This document shows positions 15,752-37,530 of a DNA stretch of 49,179 nucleotides, in pieces; within the stretch, counting starts at the first letter, position 1; the number at the start of each line of letters is the position of its first letter. The position numbers were made by a program, and so were the translations under genes. Below the pieces are notes generated by a model. That model searched no databases. It was not told the DNA's origin and saw only the letters and a list, made by a program, of their open reading frames with translations. Origin of the DNA: a virus (Duplodnaviria; Heunggongvirae; Uroviricota; Caudoviricetes); the IMG/VR virus record IMGVR_UViG_3300021600_000004. The stretch is one strand, 5' to 3'.

Positions 15752-16495
15752 ATGTATCCATTTATATCATGTAAATGTATAACCTATGGTAGAATAGTTA
15801 CGCTTGAGGAGAGTGTTGAATCTTTCCTCAAGCAAGACTATCCTGCAGATAGATGTGAGCTTATAATAGTTAATGACTATCCTTTACAAACTCTTGTATT
15901 TGATCATCCTCAAATTAAGATAGTTAACCTAGACAAAACATTTGATACTATAGGTGAAAAGGAAAACTATGCAACAGAATTATGTCAAGGAGATATAATA
16001 TGTCAATGGGATGATGATGATGTAGCTCTACCACACCATTTAAAGAATGTAGCTAAATACATGACTGATAAGGTGAATATTATTCACTGGGAAACAGGAG
16101 TGTTATGTCATGTTACAGGTATTGAACAGGTTGGTTGGATAGGTAACTCTGGTATTGTATTTAGAAAGTCAGCTTGGAAAGCTATAGGAGGACATCCTCT
16201 TGAGAATGCTGGATATGATATGACATTTATTGAACGTATTAATGCACATGGAGGAAGACTATTTGTTAAACTTCCTAAAGAAGAAGCAAGTTGGTTCTAT
16301 ATGTGGGGAGGTAGAGGTTATCATATGAGTGGTGAAGGTACAGATCATTCTGGAAAACTCAATGCTATACAAAGACACAGTGCTCATATTGAAAGAGAAA
16401 GAAGTAAAGGAAATATTCCTACAGGAGATGTTCAATTAAATCCTTGTTGGAAGATAGACTATGTAGATTTATTAAAGACATATTTAAACTTATAA
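15752..16495 (+). CDS. GT-A fold glycosyltransferase (GT2-like)
   Basis: ISCKCITYGR...LEESVESFLKQDYP...ELIIVND, G...N...G DIICQWDDDD (DxD), GYD..F; ATG at 15752. Confidence 0.85.
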   Translation: MYPFISCKCITYGRIVTLEESVESFLKQDYPADRCELIIVNDYPLQTLVFDHPQIKIVNLDKTFDTIGEKENYATELCQGDIICQWDDDDVALPHHLKNVAKYMTDKVNIIHWETGVLCHVTGIEQVGWIGNSGIVFRKSAWKAIGGHPLENAGYDMTFIERINAHGGRLFVKLPKEEASWFYMWGGRGYHMSGEGTDHSGKLNAIQRHSAHIERERSKGNIPTGDVQLNPCWKIDYVDLLKTYLNL

Positions 16496-16496
16496 A

Positions 16497-17033
16497 ATGG
16501 CACATCCAGAACAAAGAACATTCATGACATATGTAAAAGATAAGTTTCCTAAAAAGTTTGTTAATTGTAGAGTGCTAGATATTGGTTCATTAGATATTAA
16601 TGGAAACAATAGATATTTATTTACAGATTATAAATACATTGGTGTAGATATTGGTGCAGGAAAGAATGTAGATATTGTATGTAGAGGACATGAATTCAAA
16701 GACTCTGAAGGATTTGATATTGTTATATCAGCTGAATGTTTTGAACATGATGAGTTCTGGAAGGATACAATTAAAAACTGTATTGCTTTAACTAAACCAG
16801 GGGGAGTGTTTTTGTTTAGCTGTGCTACAACAGGAAGACCTGAACATGGTACACGTAGAACAAGTCCTCAAGACTCTCCATTTACATCCTTAATAGAAAA
16901 TGATTATTACATGAATCTCACAGAACAAGATGTTCGTGAAGAGATAGATATGGAAAACCATTTCTCTGAGCATGAATTTATTGCTAGAGAAACATGGCCT
17001 CAAGATTTATATTTTTGGGGAATAAAGAAATAG
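16497..17033 (+). CDS. class I SAM-dependent methyltransferase
   Basis: VLDIGS, GVDI, FDIVISAECFEHD and KPGG motifs. Confidence 0.88.
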   Translation: MAHPEQRTFMTYVKDKFPKKFVNCRVLDIGSLDINGNNRYLFTDYKYIGVDIGAGKNVDIVCRGHEFKDSEGFDIVISAECFEHDEFWKDTIKNCIALTKPGGVFLFSCATTGRPEHGTRRTSPQDSPFTSLIENDYYMNLTEQDVREEIDMENHFSEHEFIARETWPQDLYFWGIKK

Positions 17034-17063
17034 AAAAAGCCCCTAATTTATAGGGGCCTTTTT
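17034..17063. terminator. bidirectional intrinsic terminator at the junction of the convergent blocks
   Basis: AAAAA-GCCCCTA-attta-TAGGGGC-cTTTTT. Confidence 0.8.
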
Positions 17064-17141
17064 ATTACTACTTTCTAAGCACATAGGACAAGTGTCTCCC
17101 TGCTCATGTTCATAATGTATTTCATGTATAGGACAGATCAT
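17043..17141 (-). CDS. tiny Zn-finger-like peptide (32 aa)
   Basis: Read manually: MICPIHEIHYEHEQGDTCPMCLESSNKKAPIN*; ATGA coupling to the upstream ORF. Confidence 0.45.
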   Translation of the reverse strand: MICPIHEIHYEHEQGDTCPMCLESSNKKAPIN

Positions 17142-17308: not shown

Positions 17309-17309
17309 A

Positions 17310-17753
17310 TTATTTCTTTTTCATTGATTTACCACAACTAGCACAAGGCATTGCTTTCTTTGCAACCTTTGCACCTTTCTTAGCAATAACACCTCTACCT
17401 TTTAATACATCAGCTTTAGTGATTTTACCATCTTTGTTTAAATCAGGAAATGAACCACCAGATTTTGCTTTTGCCATTTTACCACCGTTTTTTTGTTTTG
17501 GTTTATATTCAGGTAATTTATTGTATTCCTTTTTATCAATATCTTTCATACCCATAGGTTTGTTATTGATAGCAGGATTAGCTTTAGGAGCATATTTACC
17601 TTTGCCAGATTGTTTATCTAACATATCAGCCATACTATCTTGTCTTTTCAAGAATTCTTTTCTATCAACAAGATCACCCATTTCTGTTCTAGCTTTGTCT
17701 TTAGGAACATCTTTTCCCATTTGTGCTTTTGCAAGCTTCTTAATAGTTGCCAT
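17310..17753 (-). CDS. basic protein with KxGG motifs and an EF-hand-like loop
   Basis: MATIKK..., KNGG, KSGG, DLNKDGKITKAD. Confidence 0.75.
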   Translation of the reverse strand: MATIKKLAKAQMGKDVPKDKARTEMGDLVDRKEFLKRQDSMADMLDKQSGKGKYAPKANPAINNKPMGMKDIDKKEYNKLPEYKPKQKNGGKMAKAKSGGSFPDLNKDGKITKADVLKGRGVIAKKGAKVAKKAMPCASCGKSMKKK

Positions 17754-17755
17754 GA

Positions 17756-18199
17756 TTATTTAGATTTAATTGCTTTTTTAACAGCTTTAACAGCTTTTAC
17801 CACTTTCATAGCTTTAGCTATTTTACCACCTGCTTTATAACCTGCAGGTTTGTTCTTACTATATCCCATTGATTTCATACCTGCTTCACGAGTAGGTTCA
17901 TATGCAGCAGACATACTATCTCTAGATGCTTTATCTTTAACAGCATCATATCCTTTACTAGCAGCATTCATTTGAGACATTGCTTCATTTCTATCATATT
18001 TTGGTGTAGCAGGTGCAGCAGCTTTTCTTTTTGCTAAGAATTCTGCTATTTCCTTACCATTTTGAGCTTTTGCCATTTTACCACCTTTTTTCATCATTGG
18101 ACCACCGCCCATAGGAGGAGCTTGCATAGGTGCTTGCATTGGAGCAGCCATAGCTTTCTTAGGAGCTGCTTTTTTCATAGATTTTTTAACTGTTGCCAT
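17756..18199 (-). CDS. basic K/A/M-rich protein (histone-like composition)
   Basis: MATVKKSMKKAAPKK..., KKGG, KAGG, KAVKKAIKSK. Confidence 0.75.
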   Translation of the reverse strand: MATVKKSMKKAAPKKAMAAPMQAPMQAPPMGGGPMMKKGGKMAKAQNGKEIAEFLAKRKAAAPATPKYDRNEAMSQMNAASKGYDAVKDKASRDSMSAAYEPTREAGMKSMGYSKNKPAGYKAGGKIAKAMKVVKAVKAVKKAIKSK

Positions 18200-18968: not shown

Positions 18969-19364
18969 TTAACATTTCCATTTACGTAAAGCTAATGTTT
19001 TCCTTGTTGGTTCACCATTAGGTTTCTTTGCAGGTCCTTTAACTCCTGACATCCTAGCACAAAATGATCTTTTTCTAGGACCACCTTCTGGTTGTGGGGC
19101 TTTTAAATGTCCACCAGTTTCTCTATTATATGAAGCTCTTCCTTTAGCATTCAATCCACCTTTTGGATTTTTACCTTCTTTTCTAGTCCAAGCAGGTGTA
19201 GATCCACCATTTTTTAATGTACTTCCTTTAAACTCTCCTTTCTTTTTAACTAAAGGACCATTAGGAACAGGAGTGATACCACCACCATTCTTAAGAACAC
19301 CTTTGCCAACATAAGCTGTTGCTTTCTGTGGATTATAAGGTCCAGGTTTCTTAATACTAGCCAT
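18969..19364 (-). CDS. basic phage protein, C-terminal domain probably DUF6321
   Basis: AWTRKEGKNPKGGLNAKGRASY...RKRSFCARM...ALRKWKC. Confidence 0.7.
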   Translation of the reverse strand: MASIKKPGPYNPQKATAYVGKGVLKNGGGITPVPNGPLVKKKGEFKGSTLKNGGSTPAWTRKEGKNPKGGLNAKGRASYNRETGGHLKAPQPEGGPRKRSFCARMSGVKGPAKKPNGEPTRKTLALRKWKC

Positions 19365-20328
19365 TTACAAAATTTAAAAAGTCTGTTGTAAGAGATGTCC
19401 AAGTTGATCCAGCTCTTACTTCTAATGAATTAATATTAATAAATGCAGAATAACCATCATCAGCATTAATAAATGTACCACTGAATAAATATAAATTAGT
19501 TGCAGATCCTAATGCAGGAATAATTGTATTATGTAATATATTATAACTTGCAACTCTTATAAGTTCTGTAGCTTGAATCATATTCTGTGAATATGTATGT
19601 GTATTATAATAAGTATAAGAAGCATAAACAATTAATGCAAGTTGATATCTTTGATAATTGTTTACAAAAGGAGCATTTGTAGCCACTGGTGCAACACCAT
19701 TTAATGTAATTGCATCAGCAATAGCTGTAGCAACAGCTCCACATGTATTATCAGCTGTAGCAGAACTCTTACCTCTTCTTAACATTCTACCTACATTATC
19801 ATTAGCTGCAATAAGGTCAGCTTGTTGTGTAATTCCTATATGAGGCATGTTAATTAATAATAATGGTCCATTTGCATTATCATCTGATGTAGTGTGACTT
19901 TGCCAAGCTTGTGCTCCTAATATACCTGTGTGAGGATATCCAGCAAGTCCACCACCCATAAATGGTCCAAGATAGTTATTTAATGCTGGAGGATTTTGAC
20001 CTATGTTAAATATATTAGCAAACTCAGAAGCATTAACATCATCTGAACAAACTGTAGAATTCAAAACAGTATTATATGCATCAGCACCTAAACCATCAAG
20101 AAAACTTACTAATTTATAAGCAACATTGTTAGCTAATAAAGCATTTGGATATGTAGCATTAACTACCTCACTATAATGTTTAGTAGTTTTATTAAAATAT
20201 TCAATTGGTTGAACTTCCTTCCAAATACCAACAGTAGGAGCATGAGTGTATAAACCAAGACTTCCTGATACTATTTCATTATTTTTTAAAAATCTTGCAT
20301 AAGGTTTTAACTTTGGATTTCTACTCAT
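19357..20328 (-). CDS. LCIB/LCIC-type beta-carbonic anhydrase with N-terminal module shared with the poly-Thr proteins
   Basis: VCSDDVN (Cys, Asp), GGLAGYPHTG, AWQSH, PHIGI (His), GR..R.G, TCGAV (Cys) and G.FIN motifs. Confidence 0.78.
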   Translation of the reverse strand: MSRNPKLKPYARFLKNNEIVSGSLGLYTHAPTVGIWKEVQPIEYFNKTTKHYSEVVNATYPNALLANNVAYKLVSFLDGLGADAYNTVLNSTVCSDDVNASEFANIFNIGQNPPALNNYLGPFMGGGLAGYPHTGILGAQAWQSHTTSDDNANGPLLLINMPHIGITQQADLIAANDNVGRMLRRGKSSATADNTCGAVATAIADAITLNGVAPVATNAPFVNNYQRYQLALIVYASYTYYNTHTYSQNMIQATELIRVASYNILHNTIIPALGSATNLYLFSGTFINADDGYSAFININSLEVRAGSTWTSLTTDFLNFVNG

Positions 20329-20677: not shown

Positions 20678-20863
20678 TTATTTCTTTTTCATCTTTGTAG
20701 CACCTAATTCTTTATCAGGTGTAAGTTTTGCTTTACCCTTAGCCTTAGCTAATGTTTTTTCTTGAACCTTAGTCCAAGCACCTTTAGGATCTACAGGACC
20801 TACACGCTTATTAGAAGCTTTTAATCCTGAAAGACTGCCTCCAGACTTTTTAACTGTTGCCAT
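20678..20863 (-). CDS. small basic protein
   Basis: MATVKKSGG...KMKKK; Lys-rich. Confidence 0.7.
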   Translation of the reverse strand: MATVKKSGGSLSGLKASNKRVGPVDPKGAWTKVQEKTLAKAKGKAKLTPDKELGATKMKKK

Positions 20864-21195: not shown

Positions 21196-21470
21196 TCTAT
21201 TTCAAATACTATTGTAGCAGAGCTTTTAATACTCTTACTCATATCAATACGTATTTGGAAAATGTTGTGAAGTTTTAATATTTCTTCTAATAACATCTCA
21301 TTATATTTTGGAAGAGATGCTGCTAACCTAAAGTGATAAGCTGAAGGATTTTTAGTTATTTCTAATGTAGAAAGTTCATCAATGGAATCTATAATTCCAA
21401 AAAGGTGAGCAAAATAAGTTGTTTCATTATCTTGCATCACCTCTGGAAAAAACTTTTTACTTAATTGCAT
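21183..21470 (-). CDS. hypothetical protein
   Basis: 95 aa ORF with TAATG coupling. Confidence 0.7.
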   Translation of the reverse strand: MQLSKKFFPEVMQDNETTYFAHLFGIIDSIDELSTLEITKNPSAYHFRLAASLPKYNEMLLEEILKLHNIFQIRIDMSKSIKSSATIVFEIDLEN

Positions 21471-21892
21471 TAAGACAATGTTAGACGATATAAAGTTTGA
21501 GCAGCTTCTCCAGATAGAGATTGTGCTACATTTTCAATATCAGGCATTTTATTAGCCTCTCCAAATTCTTCTAGTTGTTTAGCAAAAGAAACTAATTCTT
21601 TTACCACTTGATTAGGCATACCTGAAGAATAATCTTTTAAAACATCAATTTTGTAGGCTTTAATTCTTCTTCCTGAATAACCCATAATCTTTTCTACAAT
21701 CTCATCTTGAAAATCCCCTACCCTGTCATATATTTTACCTAAAGCTTCGTGCTCAGCAAATGATGTAGTTTGAAAATGTAATAGATGTAGTTGCTCATAG
21801 AAATATGACAGCTTACCAGCAATTGTTTCTAATGTAAGTGCGTTTCCTATTGCATTTTCCATCATCTCATCAGGAAATAATGATTTTACCAT
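21470..21892 (-). CDS. ferritin/Dps-like four-helix bundle protein (DUF5856-like)
   Basis: QLHLLHFQTTSFAEHEALGKIYD....FQDEIVE motif and C-terminal IENVAQSL.GE....LYRL. Confidence 0.7.
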   Translation of the reverse strand: MVKSLFPDEMMENAIGNALTLETIAGKLSYFYEQLHLLHFQTTSFAEHEALGKIYDRVGDFQDEIVEKIMGYSGRRIKAYKIDVLKDYSSGMPNQVVKELVSFAKQLEEFGEANKMPDIENVAQSLSGEAAQTLYRLTLS

Positions 21893-21904: not shown

Positions 21905-22108
21905 TTATATAGGCTGTGTAGTAGTTGTTGTAGTTGTGCTTGTACTAGTAGTTGTAGTTGTTGTGTAATTACAACACTCATTTGCATCTATCTCATGCCA
22001 GTTACCAACCTTTGGTTTAAATCTTTGTAGAATTAAACTACCTGCTATGACACGTCCACTACCATCATAACGTACATATGCTTTTAATCTATTATTGCTA
22101 TTTGCCAT
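21905..22108 (-). CDS. small putative virion protein with C-terminal poly-Thr tail
   Basis: LKAYVRYDGSGRVIAGSLIL...PKVGNWHEI..ECCNY followed by a T/S homopolymer tail. Confidence 0.75.
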   Translation of the reverse strand: MANSNNRLKAYVRYDGSGRVIAGSLILQRFKPKVGNWHEIDANECCNYTTTTTTSTSTTTTTTTQPI

Positions 22109-22120: not shown

Positions 22121-22369
22121 TTAAAGTACAGTTGTTGTTGTTGTAGTGGTAGGAGTAGCAGTTGTGGTAGTGGTTGTTGTTGTACTACTTGTACTACTAG
22201 TTGTAGTGGTTGTTGTAGGAACATAATTGCAGCATTCATAAGCTGGAATTTCTACCCATTTACCCACCTTTGGTTTCTTTCTCCGTAAAATTAGGCTGCT
22301 TGGAACTATTCTTCCAGTACCATCAAAGCGTACATAAGCTTTGAGAGGGCGATTATTATTTTGGGCCAT
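22121..22369 (-). CDS. small putative virion protein with C-terminal poly-Thr tail (paralog of 21905..22108)
   Basis: LKAYVRFDGTGRIVPSSLIL...PKVGKWVEI..ECCNY followed by about 30 T/S residues. Confidence 0.75.
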   Translation of the reverse strand: MAQNNNRPLKAYVRFDGTGRIVPSSLILRRKKPKVGKWVEIPAYECCNYVPTTTTTTSSTSSTTTTTTTTATPTTTTTTTVL

Positions 22370-22371: not shown

Positions 22372-23391
22372 TTAGTAATTTAAATTATATTTGTTTTTTA
22401 ATTCAATAAGTTTTGTGACATAGTAATGTGTTCCTCTACCTTTAGCATTTACATCATTAGCCACTGTGAGCATGTGTGTATCTTCAAATGGATCTTTACC
22501 AGTGTGGTAAGCTCCTTTGTAAAAAGCAGGATAACCATCCATATCTCTATCTGTTATACCTGCATTGTGGAACATTCCAAGCTTGTGCACTTTCTCAATA
22601 GGATCTGATGCCCAGGAAAAGTCCATTTCAGGTATATTTTTAGTTTCTTTTTCTCTCAACCAAAGGTTCCATAACACTCCCCACATATCTGCACACCAGC
22701 TTTGAAACCCTTTATTCTCATTTGCGAAATATTGTTTATTTATAGTTTGTAAATACAAACGTATTGTTATACAATCTTTCATCACCTTTTCCCAGAAAGC
22801 ACCATCTACATTCTTTACAAAGTATTGTGCTCCTCCTGAGTTGTTATTGTTAGCCTCAGCTATCTTTCTTGAAATACCAATTTTAGAAGCAAGTTGCTCT
22901 AAAACATCAATCTTTTTATATGCTTGTATCATGTCAGGAAGCACATCCTTTATCTTACTATCAAAGTATGAAGCATTTATGTAGCTATTTGTATCAGAGA
23001 GATAACATGTGTCATCATCTATATAAGCATCTACATTGAATTTATCTGTAAATAATATATCACAATCACAATAGAAGACAGCTTTTGTAGACATTTCAGG
23101 ATTATCCTGGAAGTATCTCATAAGACTGTAAGGACGCAGAACAGGAATATAAGTTCCTAAGAGCTGACTGACCTCCCCCCCATCCTTGTAATAAGCAAAT
23201 TCTGCTTCTGGATAGAGATTTTCAATCTTTTGCCATTTATCACTTTTCTGTCTAAAGCTAGGAGTGTACACAAGTACAATAGCTTTGTCTGAGTGCCCAA
23301 TGTTCTTAAGACTTTCTAACCAAGCATGTACCTGCCAAGTGTAATAAGTATCATCTGGCTGGGCAACTACAAATTTTAATTCTTTACTCAT
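22372..23391 (-). CDS. peptide O-glycosyltransferase, SGT1/HPAT (GT96/GT95)-like
   Basis: YYTWQ, LRPYS, YCDCDILF (DxD), GGAQY and SWCADMW parallel the plant Y..WQ, N(K/R)P, DxD, GGP and W..EMY motifs. Confidence 0.65.
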   Translation of the reverse strand: MSKELKFVVAQPDDTYYTWQVHAWLESLKNIGHSDKAIVLVYTPSFRQKSDKWQKIENLYPEAEFAYYKDGGEVSQLLGTYIPVLRPYSLMRYFQDNPEMSTKAVFYCDCDILFTDKFNVDAYIDDDTCYLSDTNSYINASYFDSKIKDVLPDMIQAYKKIDVLEQLASKIGISRKIAEANNNNSGGAQYFVKNVDGAFWEKVMKDCITIRLYLQTINKQYFANENKGFQSWCADMWGVLWNLWLREKETKNIPEMDFSWASDPIEKVHKLGMFHNAGITDRDMDGYPAFYKGAYHTGKDPFEDTHMLTVANDVNAKGRGTHYYVTKLIELKNKYNLNY

Positions 23392-23402: not shown

Positions 23403-23987
23403 TTATGCTACTTTTTTTCTATCATCTCTTTTAATGATTTCTATAGTATTGGTCTTCCACGTACGTCCATAAATAATGTTTCTTATTATAGAAACGTTAA
23501 TATTCATTATATTAGATATATCTACAATAGTCTTTCCTGAATTATATAGCACTTTTAATTCAGTGACACTTTTGTCTGTAATTTTTGCTTTTACATTATT
23601 TTCACCTGCTCTGCTAGGCTGTAGTCCTAAAGAATAAGCATGTAATTGATTCTCAGAATTGCTCATCCATTCAAGATTACTCACTTTGTTATTTAGCTTA
23701 TTACCATCAATGTGATTAACTTGAGGTTTATTAAAATCATTTGGTATAAAAGCTTTGGCTACTAATCTGTGTATTATTTTAGTAGTGGATTTAGAGTTTT
23801 TATACAAATTTACTTCTAAGTAACCTCGTCTATTTATAAAAGGTTTGAGCAATTTACCATGTATAACTCCACGTCTATCTCCACAAAATCTATCCACACT
23901 TCTTACTTTACCTATGCTATTTACCTGATATCCTTCAAAGTTAGGAACATCTCTCCATTCTTCACAGATAAATTTTAAATCCTTCAT
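23403..23987 (-). mobile_element. free-standing NUMOD4-HNH homing endonuclease gene
   Basis: EEWRDVPNFEGYQVNSIGKVRS (NUMOD4); HRLVAKAFIPN...VNHIDGNKLNN..SNLEW...EN..HA (HNH_3). Confidence 0.9.
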
Positions 23988-24011: not shown

Positions 24012-24170
24012 TTATGGAGTAGCTGTAGTGGTAGTGGTTGTAGTGGTTAATCCTGCAGTGTTTTTAACTACAGCTCCCACTTGTCCAATCAATTGCTCCA
24101 TCTGCTTTGATATATTCCACAAAAGTTGTGATTGTGGATCTTGCCCTATGGGCCTTGAAGGTATTGCCAT
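24012..24170 (-). CDS. small protein with C-terminal poly-Thr tail (52 aa)
   Basis: Read manually: MAIPSRPIGQDPQSQLLWNISKQMEQLIGQVGAVVKNTAGLTTTTTTTTATP*. Confidence 0.75.
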   Translation of the reverse strand: MAIPSRPIGQDPQSQLLWNISKQMEQLIGQVGAVVKNTAGLTTTTTTTTATP

Positions 24171-26442: not shown

Positions 26443-26817
26443 TTAATATGTATCATATGACTTCTCTTCTACAAACTGAGAACCATAAGCTATATTAATC
26501 TTTTTCTTAATATCAGCTCTTTTATCATTCAATATGTATACAAATCTGGCTAATTCAATGAATTCATTATTAAATAGTTTATCTTTTTCATGGATTCTAA
26601 GACTATTTTCTATGTTCCATAAGTCTTTATTTACATCAAGAAGACTTGTTACTAGTTCATCTTCCAGATCTATACCAAATTCAAGAACTTTTCCTAACAG
26701 ATAACCTAGTTCTTTTGTAACATTCTTTAACTTATCCTCATCTGTTATTCTTTCACTTTTAATAGTTAAGATGGTGAACTTGTCTACTATCTCTCCTATA
26801 CTCACTTCTATTTTCAT
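26443..26817 (-). CDS. DUF6165-like protein (commonly associated with glycosyltransferase genes)
   Basis: EVSIGEIVDKFTIL.IK...I, LW..E..LR, FIELAR.VY..ND.R...K..IN...GS..VEEKSY; start at the second Met. Confidence 0.75.
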   Translation of the reverse strand: MKIEVSIGEIVDKFTILTIKSERITDEDKLKNVTKELGYLLGKVLEFGIDLEDELVTSLLDVNKDLWNIENSLRIHEKDKLFNNEFIELARFVYILNDKRADIKKKINIAYGSQFVEEKSYDTY

Positions 26818-26825
26818 AATGTTTT

Positions 26826-26863
26826 TTTGCAAATATACCTAATCTTTCTTAAATTTGTACAAA
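26826..26863. promoter_or_regulatory. overlapping divergent Bacteroidota-type promoters
   Basis: Plus strand: TTTG(26826)-N20-TAAATTTG(26850-57). Minus strand: TTTG(26860-63)-N22-TATATTTG(26830-37). Confidence 0.65.
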
Positions 26864-29800: not shown

Positions 29801-30228
29801 GGCAGGAAGTGATTAACTATCTACATGATAAAGGATATCAAATTATCAATGTATCCAAAGAGAATAATCCATTTGATAATTGCATTAAGATAGATGATAC
29901 AAGCATTGAGAACACCATGAGTGTAATCTATCACAGTGAATTTTTTATAGGACTTAGTTCAGGGCTTAGCTGGTTAGCTTGGGCTGTAGGAACAAAGGTG
30001 GTAATGATCTCTAATTTTACCAACAAGGACCATGAGTTTCAATCTAATTGTATTAGAATTACAGATGAAAGTTTATGTCATGGATGTTGGAACAATCCTA
30101 ATTTCAAATTTGATAAAGGAGATTGGGATTGGTGTCCTATTAATAAAAATACCCCTAAACATTTTGAATGTCATAGGGGTATTAAAGCAAGTAGAGTGAT
30201 TAATGAACTATTTAAACTCGTTAGCTAA
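26872..30228 (+). CDS. four-domain enzyme: SAM methyltransferase + GT-A glycosyltransferase + GT4-like GT-B + Aah/TibC-type protein O-heptosyltransferase
   Basis: ILDVGAGEG/GDVLEH; AYVDSD, HEET; LSTGG, KNQ, STWECNPLVLREA; SLGDTLAW.PY, FIGLSSGLSWLAW, CHGCWN...CP...FEC. ATG at 26872. Confidence 0.85.
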   Translation: MPTSYKFFKNEVKEWFKNNVPANTRILDVGAGEGTYGKLLEHLEYDIDALEIWAPYIDQYELWNYYGVIHDGDIRTFDYSNYNFIILGDVLEHLTAEEGQKLIQDVKNAGKQCLVAIPYQMEQGTYEGNIYETHLQPDLTTEVMSERYPTLELLYGNMFYGYYIERKMIDKAFVLYATEAYYDIVTACVNSLVTFSKHPVFVYMLNSDAKIHKATTIRWDCNIKEIEYNTKDQFYINRTDDRIYNILIERPMIVKDCLKYANTVAYVDSDSVATPLVDRIFDFSITDYPLFVDSIYDVMMLDGKANLELPACEFFDVERGSYRQTGYFIANQDCVPFLDEWYWMCTHPTIKKDFKLYAPFHEETIANVLLWKNGHIDCLPYLYTNASLDILNNIDEYEFDKEHWQWFKLPKKENLLFYHGEKRPDVMYKMIDKLKDKKLNIMFLAPHLSTGGMPAFLQKTVEVLQNYVQISVIEYQCHSLDYVVQRNAIKELVDVYTLYENKMELFDLIYHIQPDIIHIHEPAERFDREMITELYNPNRTYRIVETCHDVSFNPNEKIFHPDAYAFCTPYHLKTFANLPSYKEVIEFPIENNVVSDIIKHKAKVKLGFSLVRTNVLNVGLWTQGKNQGEGLEIARNYPDMNFHFVGNQAVNFKYYWEPLMKDLPPNVTIWGERADIQLFMQATDIFMFNSTWECNPLVLREAIGYGLPIVARNLEQYENMFTDYIQPIDTNLHDIKATYSIPNQLDDYTNAYKNFYNTVMNIPLQEQRVDITQHFVIQPFLEIKGVSSSLFKICFYEENSSLSTEFNIKINHWVKLNREYYTKWTTKVWQDDKLIYNYILDYTGKTVFINFDSESLGDTLAWIPYCLEFKKKHNCIVIVSTFWNKILDYPELEFVEPGSTINTYGQYILGWRYNSNKEPTLPNTIPLQQAATNILGLDFQEIRPNIKFDRGNNKYGRYVTIATNSTSGCKFWTREGWQEVINYLHDKGYQIINVSKENNPFDNCIKIDDTSIENTMSVIYHSEFFIGLSSGLSWLAWAVGTKVVMISNFTNKDHEFQSNCIRITDESLCHGCWNNPNFKFDKGDWDWCPINKNTPKHFECHRGIKASRVINELFKLVS

Positions 30229-30543
30229 ATCAACAATAGCTTGAGAGATAACTCCCCATTTCATACCTTTTAAAAGCTCTTTTAAATCATTGTAATCAGC
30301 ATCTTCAAGAGAAAGTTCTGCTGTTATAGCTAAAGAGTTTTCAAGATCAGCTTCTTTTATTGAGAATGTTTCTTTATGAGCATCTAATTTCTCAAGAAGT
30401 CTTAACCTTTTAATCATTTCATCTACATTAAAACCACCCTCTTTTGGGTTGTTTATTGTTGATTTAAGTAGATCATATGTAGTTAAGATTGTATCTCTAC
30501 CACCAATGTTTTCTTTAATCACCTTTAATTTAACTGTTTTCAT
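30208..30543 (-). CDS. hypothetical protein (possible fibre chaperone)
   Basis: 111 aa ORF downstream of a consensus promoter and the fibre genes. Confidence 0.65.
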   Translation of the reverse strand: MKTVKLKVIKENIGGRDTILTTYDLLKSTINNPKEGGFNVDEMIKRLRLLEKLDAHKETFSIKEADLENSLAITAELSLEDADYNDLKELLKGMKWGVISQAIVDLANEFK

Positions 30544-30598: not shown

Positions 30599-30979
30599 TT
30601 AAATAGTAGTAGTAGTGGTGGTTAATGGTTCTTCAGTGGTGGTGGTAGTTGTTGTTGTTTCCACTGGAGCTTCAGTTGTTGTGGTTGTTGTACTTGGTAC
30701 TGGTGGTACATAATCTCCTGTAATAGTAAGATTTAATTGTTCTGCTACCCAATCCCAAGCATAATTATCTGTCTGCCATTGTGTATAAGCATCGCCTGTC
30801 ATTGTTAAATTTCCTTGTGCTAATGTGGTGGAAATATTACCATCTGCTGTTTCTGCTAATAAACCATACCAAAAGGTAGCTGATGTATTTAATGTTACAT
30901 TAATCGCATAAGTATTTAATACTTTAGCTTCGTCAATTTGACCATTGTTCCAAATTGATACTGTTTCGATTGTTTTCAT
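30599..30979 (-). CDS. putative virion/fibre-associated protein with mucin-like T/P/E tail
   Basis: Globular N-terminus then PPVPSTTTTTTEAPVETTTTTTTTEEPLTTTTTTI; directly follows the fibre gene. Confidence 0.75.
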   Translation of the reverse strand: MKTIETVSIWNNGQIDEAKVLNTYAINVTLNTSATFWYGLLAETADGNISTTLAQGNLTMTGDAYTQWQTDNYAWDWVAEQLNLTITGDYVPPVPSTTTTTTEAPVETTTTTTTTEEPLTTTTTTI

Positions 30980-30993: not shown

Positions 30994-33900
30994 TTATGGT
31001 GAAGTTGAAAGTAAGTTAATATAATAATCTGTTCCGTCAATATTTACTGTCCAATATCCTGCTGCCGTTACTGCTAGACCTGCTTGTCTTGCTCCAAACT
31101 TCATTGCTCCTGCTAGTGCTGTTGTAGGTGCTGCTGTTTTTATTGTACTTGAGAATGTAGCTGCTCCTGTTGAGGCTAAACTAAATCTTGTTGTTCCACC
31201 TATTGCAAAACTAAAACCAGCATATGTTCCTGAATTTGTAAATAAAATATTATTTGTTTGTACAAAAATACCTAAATCACTATCAATTCCATTACCGCAT
31301 CCAAATGCTTGTCCGTTAGTAGTCCTACCTACATAAATACCTGAAGTAGAAATATTACCTGTTGCCGTTACACTACTAGAGAATGTAGCTGCTCCTGTGG
31401 ATGCTATGGTAAGAGCACTTATTGAATTTGTACCAATAACTAATGATGAATTTTGTTCATTCATTAATGCAAAATTATCACCACCTCCATTTGGATAACC
31501 AAAATAACCCCTTCTTGTTGTACCATTTGAAGCATACCAAGTTTGAAATTGAGCATTGGTACTTAATTGTGTAGATTGTAAAAAATTACCATTAACATTA
31601 TAAATTGTTAAATTCCCACTAAACCTTCCTGTACCATTAACATCTAGCTTATAGCCTGCGTCTGTGGTAGTATTTATTCCAACATTATTTGATTGTGATA
31701 TTGATATTACTGATGTAGTTCCTCTTCTAAAATCCCATCTAATACCTCCTACATCAAAATAATTACTTATTCTTAATCCATTTGTATTATCTGAAAATTG
31801 TGCAAAGTCTGTAAAAGCATTTACTGTTTCTGCTTTTACTACACTAAAAATAGTATTTGGACTTGTTGTTCCTATACCTACGTTAGAACTATTAGTAATA
31901 TAAATAGCAGGTGTATTCCAAGTAATTGCACCTCCTGCAGTTCCTGTCGGAGCAGTTCTTAATCCTATTGTTCCTTGATTACCATCTATATATATTTGAC
32001 CTGCATAATTACTTACTTTATATGTAGATGAATACCAATCTCCATCTATGTTTGCAGACATTGCTAATTGTGGAACACCTGCCGCAATTCTTGATTGAAT
32101 ATTAACTCCATTTGGCAAACTTAATATAGTATTATTTGGAGAAGTACCAAAACTTCCACCTATACCCAAATCGCTTGTAAAAAATCCTGTACCTGATACT
32201 TGTAATTTATAGCCTGCATCGGTTGTAGTTCCTACAAGTAAATTACCACCACTTGTTAAGGTCATTGCTTGGATAAAGGTTATAGCGTTACCTGCCGTTC
32301 CTGAAGGAGCAACTGACCAACGATGAGTTGTATCCATTTCATACCTTGTAGCAGGATTAGTAGCAATATATTCATATTGACCTAATGATGAATAATAAAA
32401 ATTACTTCCAATTTTTAAAGAAGGTCCATTATTTTGAAAAGCAACAACTGAACCTTGTGGTCCTTGTATTACATTAAAAATAGTATTCCACGCACTCGGT
32501 GTAACTCCTAATCCTAAATTGCCTGTTGTTGTTAAGGTCATATTTGTACTTGCACTTGCAGAAAAGTTTAAATTTCTATATGCAGGAGTTGTTCCACCAT
32601 AACTAATAATATCAGTTGTTGTTGCGTTAGTTTGAAAAATTAATCCAGATGTTGGACCATCAAATCTTGTATTATTTCCATTTGCAGAAACTACTACATT
32701 TAATTTATCACTAGGAGTAGCATTACCTATACCAACATTAGTACCATTATCAAAGATTTGACTATTACCTATTGTACTTGCACCTGTAAATTTAGGTAGG
32801 TAGTTAGTAGTACCACTTCCTGTAATTGCACCACTACCAATTGCTTGAGTAGATAGCACCCCACTTGCATCAGCAACAACCATTCTTGTTCCTGTACCTG
32901 CAAGATTAGATAATGTAGCTGCTCCTGTGGAGGCTATGGTAAGAGCAGTTATACCTGTAATAAATTTTAAAGAACTTGTAGTATAATCCGATTGAATATA
33001 ATTAGTTCCATTAGTAGTTGTAAAAGCAATAGAAGGAGAAACCGCTCCATTAGCCTCAAGATAAAGAATAACATTTTGAGCAGCCTTAAACCTTCCTGTA
33101 CCATTTACATCTAGTTTGTAGCCTGCATCACTAGAATTTCCGTTTATGCTTACATTCTTGGTAGAACCAAAAACACGCATTGCCTCTACCCCATTAATAC
33201 CAAATAAGATATTACTTGTTCCTTGTGCTGAAATGGCAAAATCACCTGCAACTGAATTTGTTACAAAGTTATTTGAAGCTGTAGCTAAACCAAATTTTGC
33301 TTGATAAGTAGCACCTGTTAATGCATCAGCTAAAGAAACTGAAGGAGCAGGTCCTGCTATTAATAATTGGTTATCAGCAGTGGCAGAATAAATATTAAAT
33401 GCCCTAACCACTGTTGCACTTCCAACTGTTACACCACTACCATTATCAAATAATAAACTATTACCTATTGTTGTTCCACTACCTGTAAATTTAGCAACAT
33501 AATTAAGTGTGCCACTAAATTGTGCATTGGTTCCACTTGTACCTGACGTACCACTGGTGCCAGAAGTTCCACTTGTGCCTGAACTACCACTGGTTCCTGT
33601 AGTTCCTGAAGAACCACTAGAGCCTGTTGTACCAGAGGTTCCTGTAGTACCAGAGGTGCCACTTGTAGCTGATGTACCACTAGAGCCTGATGTTCCTGTG
33701 GTTCCTGATGTACCACCTGTTCCATTGGTTCCACTTGTACCACTTGTTCCTGTTGTTCCAGAAGTTCCTGTTGTTCCAGAAGTTCCAGAAGAACCACTAG
33801 TACCTGTTGTTCCAGAAGTTCCACTAGAACCACTAAGACCACTAGATCCACTTGTACCAGTGGTACCAGATGTTCCTGATGTACCACTAGTTCCATTTAT

Positions 33901-36900
33901 ACCAGAGCTACCTGATGTACCATTTATTCCTGAAGTTCCTGAAGAACCTGATGTTCCATTAATACCACTTGTGCCAGAAGTTCCTGTTGTACCAGATGTA
34001 CCATTTATTCCTGATGAACCAGAAGTACCAGATGTTCCACTTATTCCTGAAGTTCCTGAAGTTCCTGTAGAACCTGAAGTTCCTGATGTTCCATTAATAC
34101 CACTAGATCCACTTGTACCTGTAGTACCTGATGTACCACTAGTGGCAGATGTACCTGAAGATCCTGAAGTACCTGTTGTACCTGATGTTCCCCCTGTACC
34201 ATTAGTGCCACTAGTTCCAGACGTTCCTGAAGATCCAGAGGTTCCACTAGTACCTGTTGTACCAGATGTTCCATTAATACCACTTGTGCCTGATGTAGCT
34301 GAAGAACCACTAGATCCTGAAGTTCCTGATGTACCATTTATTCCTGATGAACCTGATGTTCCTGTTGTTCCACTAGTACCACTTGTTCCACCTGTACCAT
34401 TAGTACCAGATGTTCCTGATGTAGCTGATGTTCCACTAGAACCAGATGTGCCAGTTGTACCACTAGTTCCACTTGTTGCAGAAGTTCCAGAGCTACCACT
34501 TGTACCTGTTGTACCTGAAGATCCACTAGAACCTGTAGTGCCACTTGTACCTGATGTACCTCCTGTACCATTGGTAGCAGAAGTTCCACTAGATCCTGAT
34601 GAACCACTTGTACCTGTTGTTCCACTTGTGCCTGTTGTTCCACTAGAACCACTCACCCCACTACTACCGCTAGTTCCTGTAGAGCCAGATGTACCACTTG
34701 AGCCACTAGTTCCACCAACACCAGAAGTACCAGAAGTACCACTAGTACCAGAAGGAGCTGTGAATGTAGTTTGTACATAAGAATAGTAAGAACCATCTTC
34801 TGTATAGAAAGTTATTGTGTGAGATTGATTAGAAGTATTGGTTGCCCATAATTCTATATATATTCTATCTGTTGAAAGTAAAACTTGAGCTGCTATAAAT
34901 GTATCATAGAAAAATTGTTGTACAAGTGTACTATAAGACACTGGAACTAAGTTTGTTGTTCCTAATAATGTACTTACACCACCTATGCTATATTTATAAA
35001 CCTTACCATAAACATTGAATGATGAATTACTATTTTGTATTGTAAAATGAGTAGTAAATCCCCAGTTACCTCCTGAAAGACTTGTTAATCCTGGTACACC
35101 GCCATCTGTGATATATGTATTTATAATACTAGATGCACCACTTGCAATAGTTGAAGTAACAGTTTGAGTTGTTGTACTTGTTGGTGTTGGTGATAATTGC
35201 CTATCTGTATTTACTGCAGGACTTGCTGCCACTGATTCATTAATCCAATATACTTGACCTCCAGATATACCATTGATACCTGAAGTACCTGCTGTTCCGC
35301 TTGTACCACTTGTGCCTGTTGTTCCACTAGAACCAGAGGTTCCTGTAGTACCACTGCTACCACTAGTTCCTGTTGAACCACTAGTACCTGATGTAGCACT
35401 TGTTCCTGATGTACCAGCAGTACCACTTGTACCACCAGTTCCATTAGTTCCACTTGTTCCTGAGCTTCCACTAGTTCCTGTTGAGCCTGATGTTCCTGTT
35501 GTGCCACTAGTACCACTAGAGCCAGATGTACCGCTTGTTCCACTAGTTCCTGTTGTTCCACTTGAACCACTAGAGCCTGTTGTACCTGATGTGCCAGAAG
35601 TTCCTCCTGTACCATCAGTTCCACTTGTTCCACTAGTACCACTAGTTCCTGAAGAACCTGAAGTGCCAGTTGTACCACTACTACCAGATGTTCCACTAGT
35701 AGCAGAAGTTCCACTTGTACCACTTGTTCCCCCTGTTCCATTAGTTCCACTAGAACCTGATGTTCCTGTTGTTCCACTAGTTCCTCCTGTTCCATCAGTT
35801 CCTGATGTTCCACTAGTTCCTGTTGTACCACTTGTTCCACTTGAACCACTAGTACCTGAGCTTCCGCTTGTACCTGTAGTTCCACTTGTAGCACTTGTAC
35901 CACTTGTTCCTGAAGATCCACTAGTGCCACTAGTACCAGAAGTACCACCTGTACCATTTGTACCACTAGTACCTGATGTACCAGTACTTCCACTTGTTCC
36001 AGAAGAACCACTTGTTCCACTAGTACCTCCTGTACCATTAGTACCTGAACTACCACTAGAACCGCTAGTTCCAGTGGTACCAGATGTACCAGTAGTACCT
36101 GATGAACCTGATGAACCTGATGAACCTGATGTACCACCAGTTCCGTTTGTACCACTAGTACCACTTGTTCCACTAGATCCTGATGTGCCACTAGATCCTG
36201 ATGTTCCACTAGAGCCACTAGTACCAGTTGTACCAGAGGTTCCTCCTGTTCCATCAGTACCTGATGTACCTGATGTACCTGTTGTTCCTGCTGTTCCACT
36301 TGATCCTGAAGTTCCACTACTACCACTAGTACCTGTAGTACCTGAGCTTCCACTAGTACCAGATGTTCCTGATGTACCTGTAGTACCAGAAGTTCCTGAA
36401 GAACCTGATGTACCAGAGCTTCCACTTGTACCTGTAGTTCCTGATGTGCCAGTAGTTCCACTAGTTCCAGATGAACCAGTAGTTCCACTAGTTCCTGATG
36501 AACCTGAAGTACCAGAGCTTCCTGAAGTTCCTGTAGTTCCACTAGTTCCAGTTGTACCACTAGTTCCAGTTGTACCACTAGATCCACTGGTTCCATCTAT
36601 TGCACTTGTACCACTGCTTCCACTAGTTCCACTAGTTCCTGTAGTTCCAGAAGAACCACTGGTTCCTGATGTACCTGCTGTACCACTAGAACCTGCTGGG
36701 ATAACCCAACTTCTATTAGCTGCTAAGTTTTGTGTAACACCATTAATTGTTAATGTTCTAGTTGTTGGAACAGGAGTATATCCTAATGCAGATATAATAT
36801 CTAAACTGCCTACAGGAGTAGCTGATGTAACCAACCCTTTGGCATTCACTGAGAATTTTAAGAATGTATTACCACCATATATATTACTATTAACATTTGC

Positions 36901-37530
36901 TAATGTTAGTGTTGTAGGAGAACCTGTTACACCTATTCCTGTTACATCACCTACAAATATAAGTATACCTGAAGGAACTGTTATAGTTACAGGAGTGATG
37001 TTTGTTACAAGTCCTTTTGTATTCACTGTTACTATAGGAACTTGTGTTGCTGTTCCATAAGTACCAGGATTAGGATTTACACTAGCTAGTGTGAATACAC
37101 TAGAACCAGGACCTGTGGCTGTACCATCTCCTGTTAGAGCTGATATATAATTACCAGAAGGTTGATATGGACCAGGATCAAGACTACCATCTCCTTTTAC
37201 AAAATCAGAAGATGTACCACCTGTTGTTATTAATGCACCAGACTCAATAGAATCTGTAATCTTAAATGTATAACCACCACTAAGAATCACTGTGTTCTGC
37301 ATCAAGGTTCCACCTAGTTGTACAGGTAATCCTGGACCAGTTTGTATTATACCATTTTGAAATATATATCCAATGGCAGCATCACCAAACTTAGCATCTA
37401 TTTTTTGTAGAGCAGTTTGGACACTATCATTTGTATTGATACCTGTGTATACTAAGTTAGCACCTTCATAAAATACGCAGGTAGCATTTAGTATCACTGG
37501 ACATGGTTCAACGGAGCAATTAATTTCCAT
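30994..37530 (-). CDS. giant tail-fibre-like protein (2178 aa) with two G-T/S-S/T collagen-like blocks
   Basis: TV...G.VT fibre repeats; GTS blocks; C-terminal repeats DAGYKLDVNGTGRF, NVGIGTTSP and IASTGAATFS typical of Bacteroidota phage fibres. Confidence 0.85.
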   Translation of the reverse strand: MEINCSVEPCPVILNATCVFYEGANLVYTGINTNDSVQTALQKIDAKFGDAAIGYIFQNGIIQTGPGLPVQLGGTLMQNTVILSGGYTFKITDSIESGALITTGGTSSDFVKGDGSLDPGPYQPSGNYISALTGDGTATGPGSSVFTLASVNPNPGTYGTATQVPIVTVNTKGLVTNITPVTITVPSGILIFVGDVTGIGVTGSPTTLTLANVNSNIYGGNTFLKFSVNAKGLVTSATPVGSLDIISALGYTPVPTTRTLTINGVTQNLAANRSWVIPAGSSGTAGTSGTSGSSGTTGTSGTSGSSGTSAIDGTSGSSGTTGTSGTTGTSGTTGTSGSSGTSGSSGTSGTTGSSGTSGTTGTSGTTGTSGSSGTSGSSGTSGTTGTSGTSGTSGSSGTTGTSGSSGTSGSSGTAGTTGTSGTSGTDGTGGTSGTTGTSGSSGTSGSSGTSGSSGTSGTSGTNGTGGTSGSSGSSGSSGTTGTSGTTGTSGSSGSSGTNGTGGTSGTSGSSGTSGSTGTSGTSGTNGTGGTSGTSGTSGSSGTSGTSATSGTTGTSGSSGTSGSSGTSGTTGTSGTSGTDGTGGTSGTTGTSGSSGTNGTGGTSGTSGTSATSGTSGSSGTTGTSGSSGTSGTSGTSGTDGTGGTSGTSGTTGSSGSSGTTGTSGTSGTSGSSGTSGTTGTSGSTGTSGSSGTSGTNGTGGTSGTAGTSGTSATSGTSGSTGTSGSSGTTGTSGSSGTTGTSGTSGTAGTSGINGISGGQVYWINESVAASPAVNTDRQLSPTPTSTTTQTVTSTIASGASSIINTYITDGGVPGLTSLSGGNWGFTTHFTIQNSNSSFNVYGKVYKYSIGGVSTLLGTTNLVPVSYSTLVQQFFYDTFIAAQVLLSTDRIYIELWATNTSNQSHTITFYTEDGSYYSYVQTTFTAPSGTSGTSGTSGVGGTSGSSGTSGSTGTSGSSGVSGSSGTTGTSGTTGTSGSSGSSGTSATNGTGGTSGTSGTTGSSGSSGTTGTSGSSGTSATSGTSGTTGTSGSSGTSATSGTSGTNGTGGTSGTSGTTGTSGSSGINGTSGTSGSSGSSATSGTSGINGTSGTTGTSGTSGSSGTSGTSGTNGTGGTSGTTGTSGSSGTSATSGTSGTTGTSGSSGINGTSGTSGSTGTSGTSGISGTSGTSGSSGINGTSGTTGTSGTSGINGTSGSSGTSGINGTSGSSGINGTSGTSGTSGTTGTSGSSGLSGSSGTSGTTGTSGSSGTSGTTGTSGTTGTSGTSGTNGTGGTSGTTGTSGSSGTSATSGTSGTTGTSGTTGSSGSSGTTGTSGSSGTSGTSGTSGTSGTSGTNAQFSGTLNYVAKFTGSGTTIGNSLLFDNGSGVTVGSATVVRAFNIYSATADNQLLIAGPAPSVSLADALTGATYQAKFGLATASNNFVTNSVAGDFAISAQGTSNILFGINGVEAMRVFGSTKNVSINGNSSDAGYKLDVNGTGRFKAAQNVILYLEANGAVSPSIAFTTTNGTNYIQSDYTTSSLKFITGITALTIASTGAATLSNLAGTGTRMVVADASGVLSTQAIGSGAITGSGTTNYLPKFTGASTIGNSQIFDNGTNVGIGNATPSDKLNVVVSANGNNTRFDGPTSGLIFQTNATTTDIISYGGTTPAYRNLNFSASASTNMTLTTTGNLGLGVTPSAWNTIFNVIQGPQGSVVAFQNNGPSLKIGSNFYYSSLGQYEYIATNPATRYEMDTTHRWSVAPSGTAGNAITFIQAMTLTSGGNLLVGTTTDAGYKLQVSGTGFFTSDLGIGGSFGTSPNNTILSLPNGVNIQSRIAAGVPQLAMSANIDGDWYSSTYKVSNYAGQIYIDGNQGTIGLRTAPTGTAGGAITWNTPAIYITNSSNVGIGTTSPNTIFSVVKAETVNAFTDFAQFSDNTNGLRISNYFDVGGIRWDFRRGTTSVISISQSNNVGINTTTDAGYKLDVNGTGRFSGNLTIYNVNGNFLQSTQLSTNAQFQTWYASNGTTRRGYFGYPNGGGDNFALMNEQNSSLVIGTNSISALTIASTGAATFSSSVTATGNISTSGIYVGRTTNGQAFGCGNGIDSDLGIFVQTNNILFTNSGTYAGFSFAIGGTTRFSLASTGAATFSSTIKTAAPTTALAGAMKFGARQAGLAVTAAGYWTVNIDGTDYYINLLSTSP
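33526..34752 (-). repeat. Gly-X-Y coding repeat block 2 (about 410 aa; GTS/GSS/GTT/GIN/GTN)
   Basis: Direct reading of the translation: Gly every third residue with synonymous codon diversity. Confidence 0.95.
35261..36693 (-). repeat. Gly-X-Y coding repeat block 1 (about 475 aa; GTS/GSS/GTT/GTG)
   Basis: Direct reading of the translation. Confidence 0.95.

Follow-up and report, generated by a model that had tools for sequence, protein, structure and literature searches.

The plant glycosyltransferases SGT1 and HPAT/RDN initiate glycosylation on hydroxy amino acids, attaching the first sugar to peptides that are repetitive and extended. Thr is O-glycosylated in the Gly-X-Thr type triplets of BclA from the Bacillus exosporium and of Riftia cuticle collagen. 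The Riftia protein is galactosylated on Thr, and the sugar stabilizes a triple helix that is poor in hydroxyproline (Hyp). The triplets of BclA are Pro-rich (GPT), and both are cellular or animal proteins with other enzymes; we know of no TibC-type enzyme that is involved in glycosylating either of them. To our knowledge, virion glycosylation has been proven experimentally for mycobacteriophages only. Here we describe two putative protein O-glycosylation modules in a 49,179-nucleotide (nt) stretch of DNA from an uncultured tailed phage (IMG/VR record IMGVR_UViG_3300021600_000004). This stretch, referred to below as the window, covers 49 kb of a genome of ~113 kb. One module pairs a glycosyltransferase (GT) of 339 amino acids (aa) with small poly-Thr proteins, and the other pairs an 1118-aa enzyme containing a TibC-like domain with a collagen-like fiber.

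TibC and Aah are protein heptosyltransferases of the BAHT (bacterial autotransporter heptosyltransferase) family (TIGR04414; PDB 4RAP/4RB4). A BAHT enzyme typically takes heptose from ADP-heptose, assembles as a dodecamer and acts on an autotransporter passenger domain whose gene is adjacent. The roles of the iron finger, the catalytic base Asp110 and the sugar-binding residues Thr226, Lys230, Arg286 and Trp305 have been described in TibC (PMC4358343). Mycobacteriophage virions carry glycans on the C-termini of capsid and tail-tube proteins (Freeman et al. 2023, Cell Host Microbe 31:1216, as cited in PMC12619734). The mycobacteriophage case resembles ours in that phage-encoded GTs are assumed to modify the exposed C-terminal regions of structural proteins made by the phage itself. 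The two cases differ in host phylum, enzyme families and acceptors. The acceptors are capsid and tail-tube subunits in the mycobacteriophages, but would be small poly-Thr anchor proteins and a collagen-like fiber here.

A GT-A enzyme that resembles plant peptide O-glycosyltransferases

A sequence-only reading of the window had listed five GT domains, two methyltransferases, a DUF6165 protein, four poly-Thr proteins and a fiber with Gly-Thr/Ser-Ser/Thr repeats. We found all of these at or near the places assigned to them. The enzyme of the first module is the 339-aa protein encoded at positions 22372-23391 on the minus strand, which belongs to phrog_4417 (PHROGs match, E 1e-50). Pfam and NCBIfam gave no match to this protein, and a sequence search of the PDB with the family profile returned nothing. 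An AlphaFold model built from a 58-sequence alignment showed a GT-A fold with a predicted local distance difference test (pLDDT) score of 97. Residues D109 and D111 of the DxD motif are invariant across the 58 sequences.

We compared this model with known structures. Among Swiss-Prot models, the top fold match was the Arabidopsis peptidyl-Ser alpha-galactosyltransferase SGT1 (E 1e-10, template modeling score [TM] 0.62). The next matches were seven Hyp-O-arabinosyltransferases (HPAT1-3/RDN/PLENTY; TM 0.64 for HPAT1), and these plant enzymes outranked galactinol synthases and GT8 enzymes. The SGT1/HPAT-like label that the protein had been given from its sequence is thus borne out by the fold search. 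Comparison with PDB structures showed a resemblance to glycogenin and GT6/GT8 enzymes. Like plant SGT1 (GT96) and HPAT/RDN (GT95), the 339-aa protein is a GT-A enzyme with a DxD motif, and it matches them at TM 0.59-0.64 and E values down to 1e-10. Unlike them, it shows only 11-14% identity in fold alignments, and it is not a member of either family by sequence. It also lacks a membrane anchor, and its presumed acceptor is Thr and not Ser or Hyp.

A protein search identified 1655 relatives of the 339-aa enzyme. The middle GT-A domain of the 1118-aa protein described below was considered as a close paralog of this family and rejected: the profile-profile probability was 15%, and the two aligned only around the DxD motif.

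Poly-Thr proteins around the GT-A gene

The GT-A gene is accompanied by genes for small proteins with poly-Thr tails, which fall into two families. Family B is represented by an 82-aa protein (22121-22369, minus strand) that begins directly downstream (2 nt) of the GT-A gene and by a 67-aa paralog (21905-22108, minus strand). Both carry a poly-Thr tail, and the family shares the anchor motif KAYVR[FY]DG...ECC (fuller form KAYVRYDGSGR...ECC). Family A is represented by a 52-aa protein (24012-24170, minus strand) in which an N-terminal helix is followed by a poly-Thr tail; its N-terminal motif is MAIPSR.IG...LLW.ISKQ (fuller form MAIPSR.IGW...LLWQISKQLE). A fourth poly-Thr protein of 126 aa (30599-30979, minus strand) consists of a 95-aa N-terminal domain and three poly-Thr runs, and its gene adjoins the fiber gene.

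In most relatives, family A lies directly upstream of the GT-A gene and family B lies downstream. An HNH/NUMOD4 homing endonuclease gene (23403-23987, minus strand) sits between the family A gene and the GT-A gene in the window, and it is found in just 12 of 80 related GT-A loci. It is a mobile insertion separating the family A gene from the rest of the A/GT-A/B cassette and stands outside the glycosylation system.

The N-terminal modules of families A and B are conserved, and the remainder of each protein is variable and usually consists of a poly-Thr tail alone. Long forms occur in some relatives. In family B, the poly-Thr tract serves as a linker, with Lcl_C, Cys-rich, or DUF285 plus PKD domains beyond it; family A proteins can continue past the tract into collagen repeats and a head domain. 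With their constant anchor, extended stalk and variable surface-type tip, these proteins look like virion-attached fibers or whiskers, and we infer from this architecture that families A and B may be attached to the virion as whiskers with a mucin-like stalk. The small poly-Thr proteins had no PHROGs or Pfam match, and language-model look-ups gave only viral hypothetical clusters.

We used G001, a complete IMG/VR genome of 113,645 bp with direct terminal repeats, as a stand-in for whole-genome questions. G001 is ~94% identical to the window across most of the region. Its structural module (37194-50062 in G001, outside the window) encodes five more poly-Thr proteins between the capsid and tail genes. 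Among them are a 1684-aa protein that contains five poly-Thr linkers and one of 396 aa whose poly-Thr tract is N-terminal. The G001 major capsid protein (33743-35296) contains no poly-Thr run. The pattern (ACN)7 occurs 20 times on the coding strand of G001 and 0 times on the reverse strand, and a reversed-pattern control gave 1 match per strand. The poly-Thr coding runs are not due to chance. As negative controls, we used three phages that match G001 by the large terminase (TerL) and contain neither enzyme (Lbo-JY46, phi4:1 and crAssphage cr130_1; 95-146 kb). These control genomes contained 0 (ACN)7 runs, compared with the 20 in G001 and 2 in Enterococcus phage phiFL1A.

The GT-A enzyme is paired with poly-Thr proteins across phages

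The sequence-only reading had suggested that co-occurrence of the GT families with Ser/Thr-rich genes be examined across genomes. A tblastn search with the 339-aa enzyme identified homologs in 77 cultured phages, and we examined 13 of these loci. Poly-Thr open reading frames (ORFs) were present within ~2 kb of the GT-A homolog in 11 of the 13. The carriers of both genes are Enterococcus (phiFL1A, nattely), Lactococcus (1706, bIL285), Lactobacillus (Semele, iLp84, R3.3), Clostridium (phiCTP1), Staphylococcus (DH5), Arcanobacterium (TPWB06) and Chryseobacterium (MA9V-3) phages. Where the poly-Thr neighbors in cultured loci are annotated, they are major structural proteins, and in Firmicutes-type phages the tails are found on capsid or tail proteins. 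For example, the major tail protein gp50 of Enterococcus phiFL1A ends ...TTTTTSTTTTTTSSTTTTTTTQASSK, and the next gene codes for the GT-A homolog. A probable capsid protein of the same phage also has a poly-Thr end. In Lactococcus 1706, the capsid/protease and the major structural protein both have a T9-10-HHD end.

The pairing also holds within the lineage of the window. We assembled 80 IMG/VR loci with a GT-A enzyme at 62-98% identity. Homologs of the small poly-Thr proteins are kept in all 80 loci, and a same-strand poly-Thr ORF lies at most 700 nt downstream of the GT-A gene in 72 of 78. In a separate set of viral loci chosen by their TibC-like domain (described below), poly-Thr ORFs were found in 32/32 loci with the GT-A gene and in 11/48 loci without it. 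The GT-A enzyme tracks poly-Thr proteins across phyla, a result that favors protein acceptors.

A four-domain enzyme with a TibC-like domain

The second module is built around the 1118-aa enzyme encoded at 26872-30228 on the plus strand. Domain 1 (aa 1-165; 26872-27366) is a MetW-like S-adenosylmethionine (SAM) methyltransferase, with the match spanning aa 17-118. Domain 2 (aa 170-455; 27379-28236) has a GT-A fold of the GT6/GT8-like retaining type with a D-S-D motif, and was modeled at a pLDDT of 90. Domain 3 (28237-29241) is a GT-B domain of the GT4 type, with Glycos_transf_1 at aa ~630-725. Domain 4 (aa 811-1113; 29302-30210) is a TibC/Aah-family (BAHT) domain.

Domain 4 had been called TibC-like from sequence alone, and this assignment held under closer comparison. 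It matched TIGR04414 (hepto_Aah_TibC) with 244.2 bits against a curated cut-off of 200 (E 2e-72, model positions 49-371 of 374) and aligned with the TibC structure 4RAP at E 4e-44. The iron-finger residues Cys339, Cys342, Cys358 and Cys370 (TibC numbering) are all kept, in the arrangement CHGCW...WCP...FEC. TibC residues Asp110, Thr226, Lys230 and Trp305 are conserved as well, and Pro300 is replaced by Ser, as it is in Aah. Domain 4 is thus like TibC and Aah in being a member of the family by sequence, with the four iron-finger Cys, the catalytic Asp and three of the four sugar-site residues. It is unlike TibC in having Thr in place of Arg286. The locus also has the familiar layout of a TibC/Aah system, in that the enzyme is encoded beside a structural protein that is Ser-rich and highly repetitive, and carries no recognizable export signal. 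In contrast to TibC and Aah, domain 4 is fused behind methyltransferase, GT8-like and GT4 domains, and its neighbor is a proline-free collagen-like phage fiber and not an autotransporter passenger with a beta-helix.

The GT4 plus TibC-like core was found in 3928 proteins at E <= 1e-5. The N-terminal domains of these homologs vary and include methyltransferases, polysaccharide pyruvyl transferases (PS_pyruv_trans, PF04230), FkbM, GT25, Gly_transf_sug and GT2 domains. This swapping of N-terminal domains points to glycan diversification. Two relatives have three TibC-like domains in tandem on a single polypeptide: P0322 (1147 aa) and P0325 (924 aa).

The TibC-like domain is paired with collagen-like fibers

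The gene for a 2178-aa fiber (30994-37530, minus strand) is convergent, tail-to-tail, with the 1118-aa enzyme gene. The fiber consists of an N-terminal domain, two collagen-like blocks and a C-terminal fiber domain, and it matches Pfam Collagen (PF01391) at E 3e-95. We counted 285 Gly-X-Y triplets in 12 runs. They fall into block 1 (aa 280-756; nt 35263-36693) and block 2 (aa 928-1335; nt 33526-34749) and together span ~885 aa, close to the repeat length of about 890 aa first estimated; the repeat itself can now be described more precisely as a proline-free collagen type. Position X is Thr in 73% and Ser in 22% of triplets, and position Y is Ser in 71% and Thr in 16%. Nearly all X and Y residues are Thr, Ser or Asn. 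Unlike BclA, the fiber contains no Pro at all, and its X and Y positions lack the Pro/Hyp or charged residues that otherwise stabilize a collagen helix. A 111-aa protein with no assigned role is encoded between the enzyme and fiber genes (30208-30543, minus strand) and is kept in 3 of 80 loci within the flank; whether it belongs to the glycosylation system is uncertain.

We examined 80 viral loci chosen by the TibC-like domain alone, with a full flank defined as 10 kb and a collagen ORF defined by at least 12 Gly-X-Y triplets rich in Ser/Thr. A Gly-Ser/Thr collagen ORF was present in 53 of the 80 loci and in 29 of the 35 with full flanks. It was nearly always convergent, starting 0.4-6 kb downstream of the TibC-type enzyme gene. 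Independent cases show the pairing as well. In Microcystis phage Mel-JY01, a stretch of ~470 aa made up of GTS/GSS/GTR triplets lies 1.7 kb away from a TibC-like protein of 1227 aa, and a 735-kb uncultured phage has a 695-aa Gly-Ser/Thr fiber 3.7 kb from a TibC-like gene. The Mel-JY01 reading frame (PP395634.1, 635-3052, plus strand) codes for an 805-aa collagen-like Gly-Thr/Ser-Ser fiber with a globular C-terminal part; GenBank lists a Pro/Glu/Val-rich hypothetical protein there on the minus strand (739-2298), and the deposited annotation is probably on the wrong strand.

Cellular genomes showed a similar relationship. The closer cellular homologs (34-45% identity) with a collagen ORF nearby come from a Methylobacter chromosome and from metagenome-assembled contigs of Flavobacteriales, Bacteroidetes, Bacteroides and Nitrosotalea. 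Distant TibC homologs, mostly of Negativicutes type (30-36% identity), had no collagen ORF nearby. We mapped the label "collagen ORF nearby" onto a FastTree phylogeny of 129 domains and obtained 8 changes compared with 22.6 after shuffling; 0 of 500 shuffles were as low, and near-copies inflate this clustering. Unlike TibC and Aah, then, the collagen-associated loci cluster on the domain tree. The TibC-like domain tracks Gly-Ser/Thr collagen-like fibers in several phage lineages that are unrelated to each other, and also in some genomes of cellular organisms.

We also approached the pairing from the fiber side. The Gly-Ser/Thr collagen pattern was absent from the three control phages without the enzymes and gave 53 matches in G001, all within the fiber gene. 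Among 120 chunks of DNA picked by a Gly-Thr-Ser DNA pattern, 7 contained a TibC-like domain, far above the background of 4 in 50,697 cultured-phage records. The low proportion of chunks with the domain indicates that this type of fiber does not require the enzyme.

These data indicate that the two enzyme-acceptor pairs are separable modules and do not form one pathway. Many collagen-paired TibC loci lie on contigs of 137-321 kb without GT-A or poly-Thr ORFs. Among the 17 full-flank TibC loci without GT-A, 13 had a collagen ORF and just 2 had a poly-Thr ORF. Conversely, the cultured GT-A loci (210 kb in total, mostly Firmicutes phages) contained no TibC-like domain and no Gly-Ser/Thr collagen ORF. 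Within GT-A-centered loci, the presence of the TibC-like domain and of the collagen ORF showed no significant association (p 0.41); this comparison is uninformative because the fiber lies 7.6-14 kb from the GT-A gene, at or beyond the 10-kb flank.

Phage lineage, putative host and other genes in the window

The lineage is characterized by giant proteins, direct terminal repeats and a genome size of ~113 kb. The TerL of G001 is 39% identical to that of Leptolyngbya phage Lbo-JY46, 33% to that of Cellulophaga phage phi4:1 and 26-27% to those of Crassvirales. The phage had been described as crAss-like and as a phage of Bacteroidota. Because identity to Crassvirales TerL is only 26-27%, the first description appears to apply in a distant sense only. 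As for the second, the nearest copies of the TibC-like domain in genome collections are on contigs binned as Bacteroidota (Sediminibacterium 93%, Lutibacter 70%, Chitinophaga 64%), which hints at Bacteroidota as the putative host. Megablast of the region against cultured phages returned HNH fragments only.

Three further genes named in the sequence-only reading are present. A GT2 gene (15752-16495, plus strand; PF00535, E 1.5e-10) lies at the end of the replication-gene strand and is followed by a stand-alone SAM methyltransferase gene (16497-17033, plus strand; phrog_32762, E 6e-55). Both had been counted as parts of the glycosylation system, and we found no specific link between either gene and either module. 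A DUF6165 gene (26443-26832, minus strand; E 1.4e-10) is divergent from the 1118-aa enzyme gene and is a neighbor in 31/80 GT-A-centered and 25/80 TibC-centered loci.

The module genes are on the late/structural strand and adjoin fiber and lysis genes. Other genes in the window encode rIIA/rIIB, a ribonucleotide reductase, a UvsX-like recombinase, a dUTPase, a UDG-like protein and a phage lysozyme with a probable lysis cassette. Genes for a DUF932 protein (E 2e-9), a UDG-superfamily protein (E 1e-6) and a DUF5856 protein (E 6e-14), located at 859-2371 (plus strand) and 21470-21892 (minus strand), have no evident tie to glycosylation. A 323-aa protein (19357-20328, minus strand) matches LCIB_C_CA, a family of limiting-CO2-inducible B/C beta-carbonic anhydrases (PF18599, E 1.4e-18). 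We found no homolog of it among the 50,697 cultured phage records. The gene is an unusual candidate auxiliary metabolic gene and could hint at a phototrophic or CO2-concentrating host context.

Four Lys/Ala/Gly-rich proteins that start MAT[VI]KK or MASIKK are encoded on the minus strand at 17310-17753, 17756-18199, 18969-19364 and 20678-20863, and one of them contains DUF6321. They appear to be paralogous and very basic and are possibly DNA-binding or internal virion proteins. Giant proteins of 1851 aa and 1970 aa are encoded at 37687-43242 and 43248-49160 on the minus strand, and an ADP-ribosyltransferase domain of the ART-PolyVal type (E 1.7e-17) is present in the 1851-aa protein. By blastn, the sequence past window position 37689 has no match of more than 300 nt in the otherwise 94%-identical G001, which marks this part as a variable cargo region.

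Discussion

We conclude that the window probably codes for two modules for cytoplasmic O-glycosylation of proteins, with the phage's own externally displayed proteins as substrates and donor sugars from the host. Because each of the two enzyme types adjoins its likely protein target, the phage particle is probably sugar-decorated. The earlier proposal that the phage glycosylates its own fiber and decoration proteins gains comparative support from this work; the single five-enzyme pathway it envisaged is replaced by two independent modules. Starting from domain identities, conserved residues and gene pairings across lineages, all of which were observed directly, we infer the sugar attachment itself, the identity of the sugars, the order of steps, the location of the small proteins on the virion and the biological role. 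The 339-aa GT-A would glycosylate Thr directly within poly-Thr tails and linkers, and its acceptors would be the small proteins of families A and B encoded on either side. The remaining poly-Thr proteins of the structural module, as found in G001, would probably be acceptors too. The TibC/Aah-type domain would prime Ser/Thr within the (Gly-Thr/Ser-Ser/Thr)n repeats of the fiber. The fused GT4 and GT8-like domains would then extend the fiber glycan, and the fused methyltransferase would modify it, perhaps by methyl-capping. The donor sugars would be supplied by the host. The glycans might stiffen or stabilize a triple helix that lacks proline, protect against proteases, or serve in adhesion or masking.

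Several observations weigh against this interpretation. The case for glycosylation here is drawn from gene content and gene pairings. The small poly-Thr proteins match no known virion family. The sugar-binding Arg286 of TibC is Thr in domain 4. The complete relative G001 contains no heptose-activation genes (PF01467, PF13580), a further difference from TibC, so an ADP-heptose donor would have to come from the host. Phages SAC12B and LP65 have the GT-A gene and no poly-Thr ORF in the 8.8 kb examined, and, conversely, poly-Thr ORFs still occur in 11 of the 48 TibC-centered loci without GT-A. Gly-Ser/Thr collagen-like genes are far commoner than TibC-like genes, and most such fibers have no enzyme nearby. 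Domains of the GT2, GT4 and GT8-like types are typically found in polysaccharide synthesis as well. Finally, the loci share descent, and the counts and Fisher tests overstate their independence.

Some of these points would fit a more limited arrangement, in which one module glycosylates its neighbor (most likely the TibC-like enzyme and the fiber) and the other tracts are plain linkers, or the GT-A enzyme has another substrate such as a host protein or itself, by glycogenin-like self-glucosylation. The separability of the modules is compatible with this idea, as are the poly-Thr ORFs in TibC loci without GT-A and in 39 of the 120 collagen-pattern chunks, just one of which has GT-A, and the resemblance of the enzyme to glycogenin and GT6/GT8 enzymes. 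We nevertheless think it unlikely, as the GT-A/poly-Thr pairing recurs in phages of Bacillota, Arcanobacterium and Chryseobacterium (Bacteroidota), often with the tailed gene adjacent, and the three relatives without the enzyme have zero poly-Thr runs.

A role outside the virion would require different substrates. The GTs might remodel envelope glycans of the host (lipopolysaccharide, capsule or glycoproteins), blocking superinfection or changing the receptor, with the Ser/Thr-rich proteins serving as unmodified linkers or stalks. Weak, below-cut-off NCBIfam matches of the GT2, GT4 and GT8-like domains to polysaccharide and glycolipid enzymes (HpsN, PglI, WcaA, IagA/BgsA, RfaQ) point in this direction, as do the filing of the GT4 part by PHROGs under moron / host takeover and the polysaccharide pyruvyl transferase domain (PF04230) in homologs. 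This account leaves unexplained why GT-A tracks poly-Thr proteins and TibC-like domains track collagen-like fibers in unrelated phages. Moreover, both BAHT enzymes characterized in PMC4358343, TibC and Aah, have protein substrates, GT-A finds its best fold matches among peptide O-glycosyltransferases, and the genes are in the late/structural block and not in an early or lysogeny block. We consider remodeling of host glycans quite improbable, if still conceivable for the GT2, GT4 and GT8-like domains. Hypermodification of phage DNA with sugars, as in T4 and in pathways based on 5-hydroxymethylcytosine or 5-hydroxymethyluracil, seems very improbable. DNA-glycosylating phage enzymes of the GT-A and GT-B folds are widespread, and known DNA-glycosylation pathways cluster with hydroxymethylase-type genes (bioRxiv 10.1101/2023.12.21.572611). 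The window does encode nucleotide-metabolism proteins (ribonucleotide reductase, dUTPase and the UDG-like protein), but no hydroxymethylase of the thymidylate-synthase type is encoded in the complete G001. Searching G001 for TET/JBP enzymes was likewise negative, a result that is uninformative since control genomes gave no match either. With the exception of GT2, the enzymes adjoin fiber and whisker genes and not replication genes, and the TibC-family domain retains the hallmarks of a protein GT.

Virion O-glycosylation by two modules is thus the explanation we favor. A literature search found no paper that describes a GT-A/poly-Thr or a TibC-like/collagen-fiber pairing in phages; its coverage was incomplete, and it does not prove absence. 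What appears particular to the window is the presence of both modules in one crAss-related genome and the use of dedicated small anchor proteins as poly-Thr carriers. A more far-reaching version, which we offer tentatively and regard as possible but doubtful, is that one phage combines two orthogonal enzyme-acceptor codes, with poly-Thr read by an SGT1/HPAT-like GT-A and proline-free Gly-Thr/Ser-Ser/Thr repeats read by a TibC-type enzyme. O-glycosylation might then replace Hyp in the folding and stiffening of collagen-like fibers, and swappable tailoring domains (methyl, pyruvyl, extra GTs) might produce phage-specific fiber glycans, a hidden source of host-range and anti-defense variation in thousands of aquatic phages.

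If the two-module model is correct, sugar-coated fibers and whiskers would be common in environmental phages, given the 1655 GT-A and 3928 TibC-type relatives. How stiff and protease-resistant the fibers are, how they adsorb and how hosts or grazers recognize them would then depend on glycans that the genome does not directly spell out. The TibC/Aah family would reach beyond virulence adhesins to collagen-like fibers of viruses, and the enzyme-tag pairs would be usable as tools for site-directed protein glycosylation. The model would also provide a testable answer to how proline-free Gly-Ser/Thr "collagens" make stable stalks.

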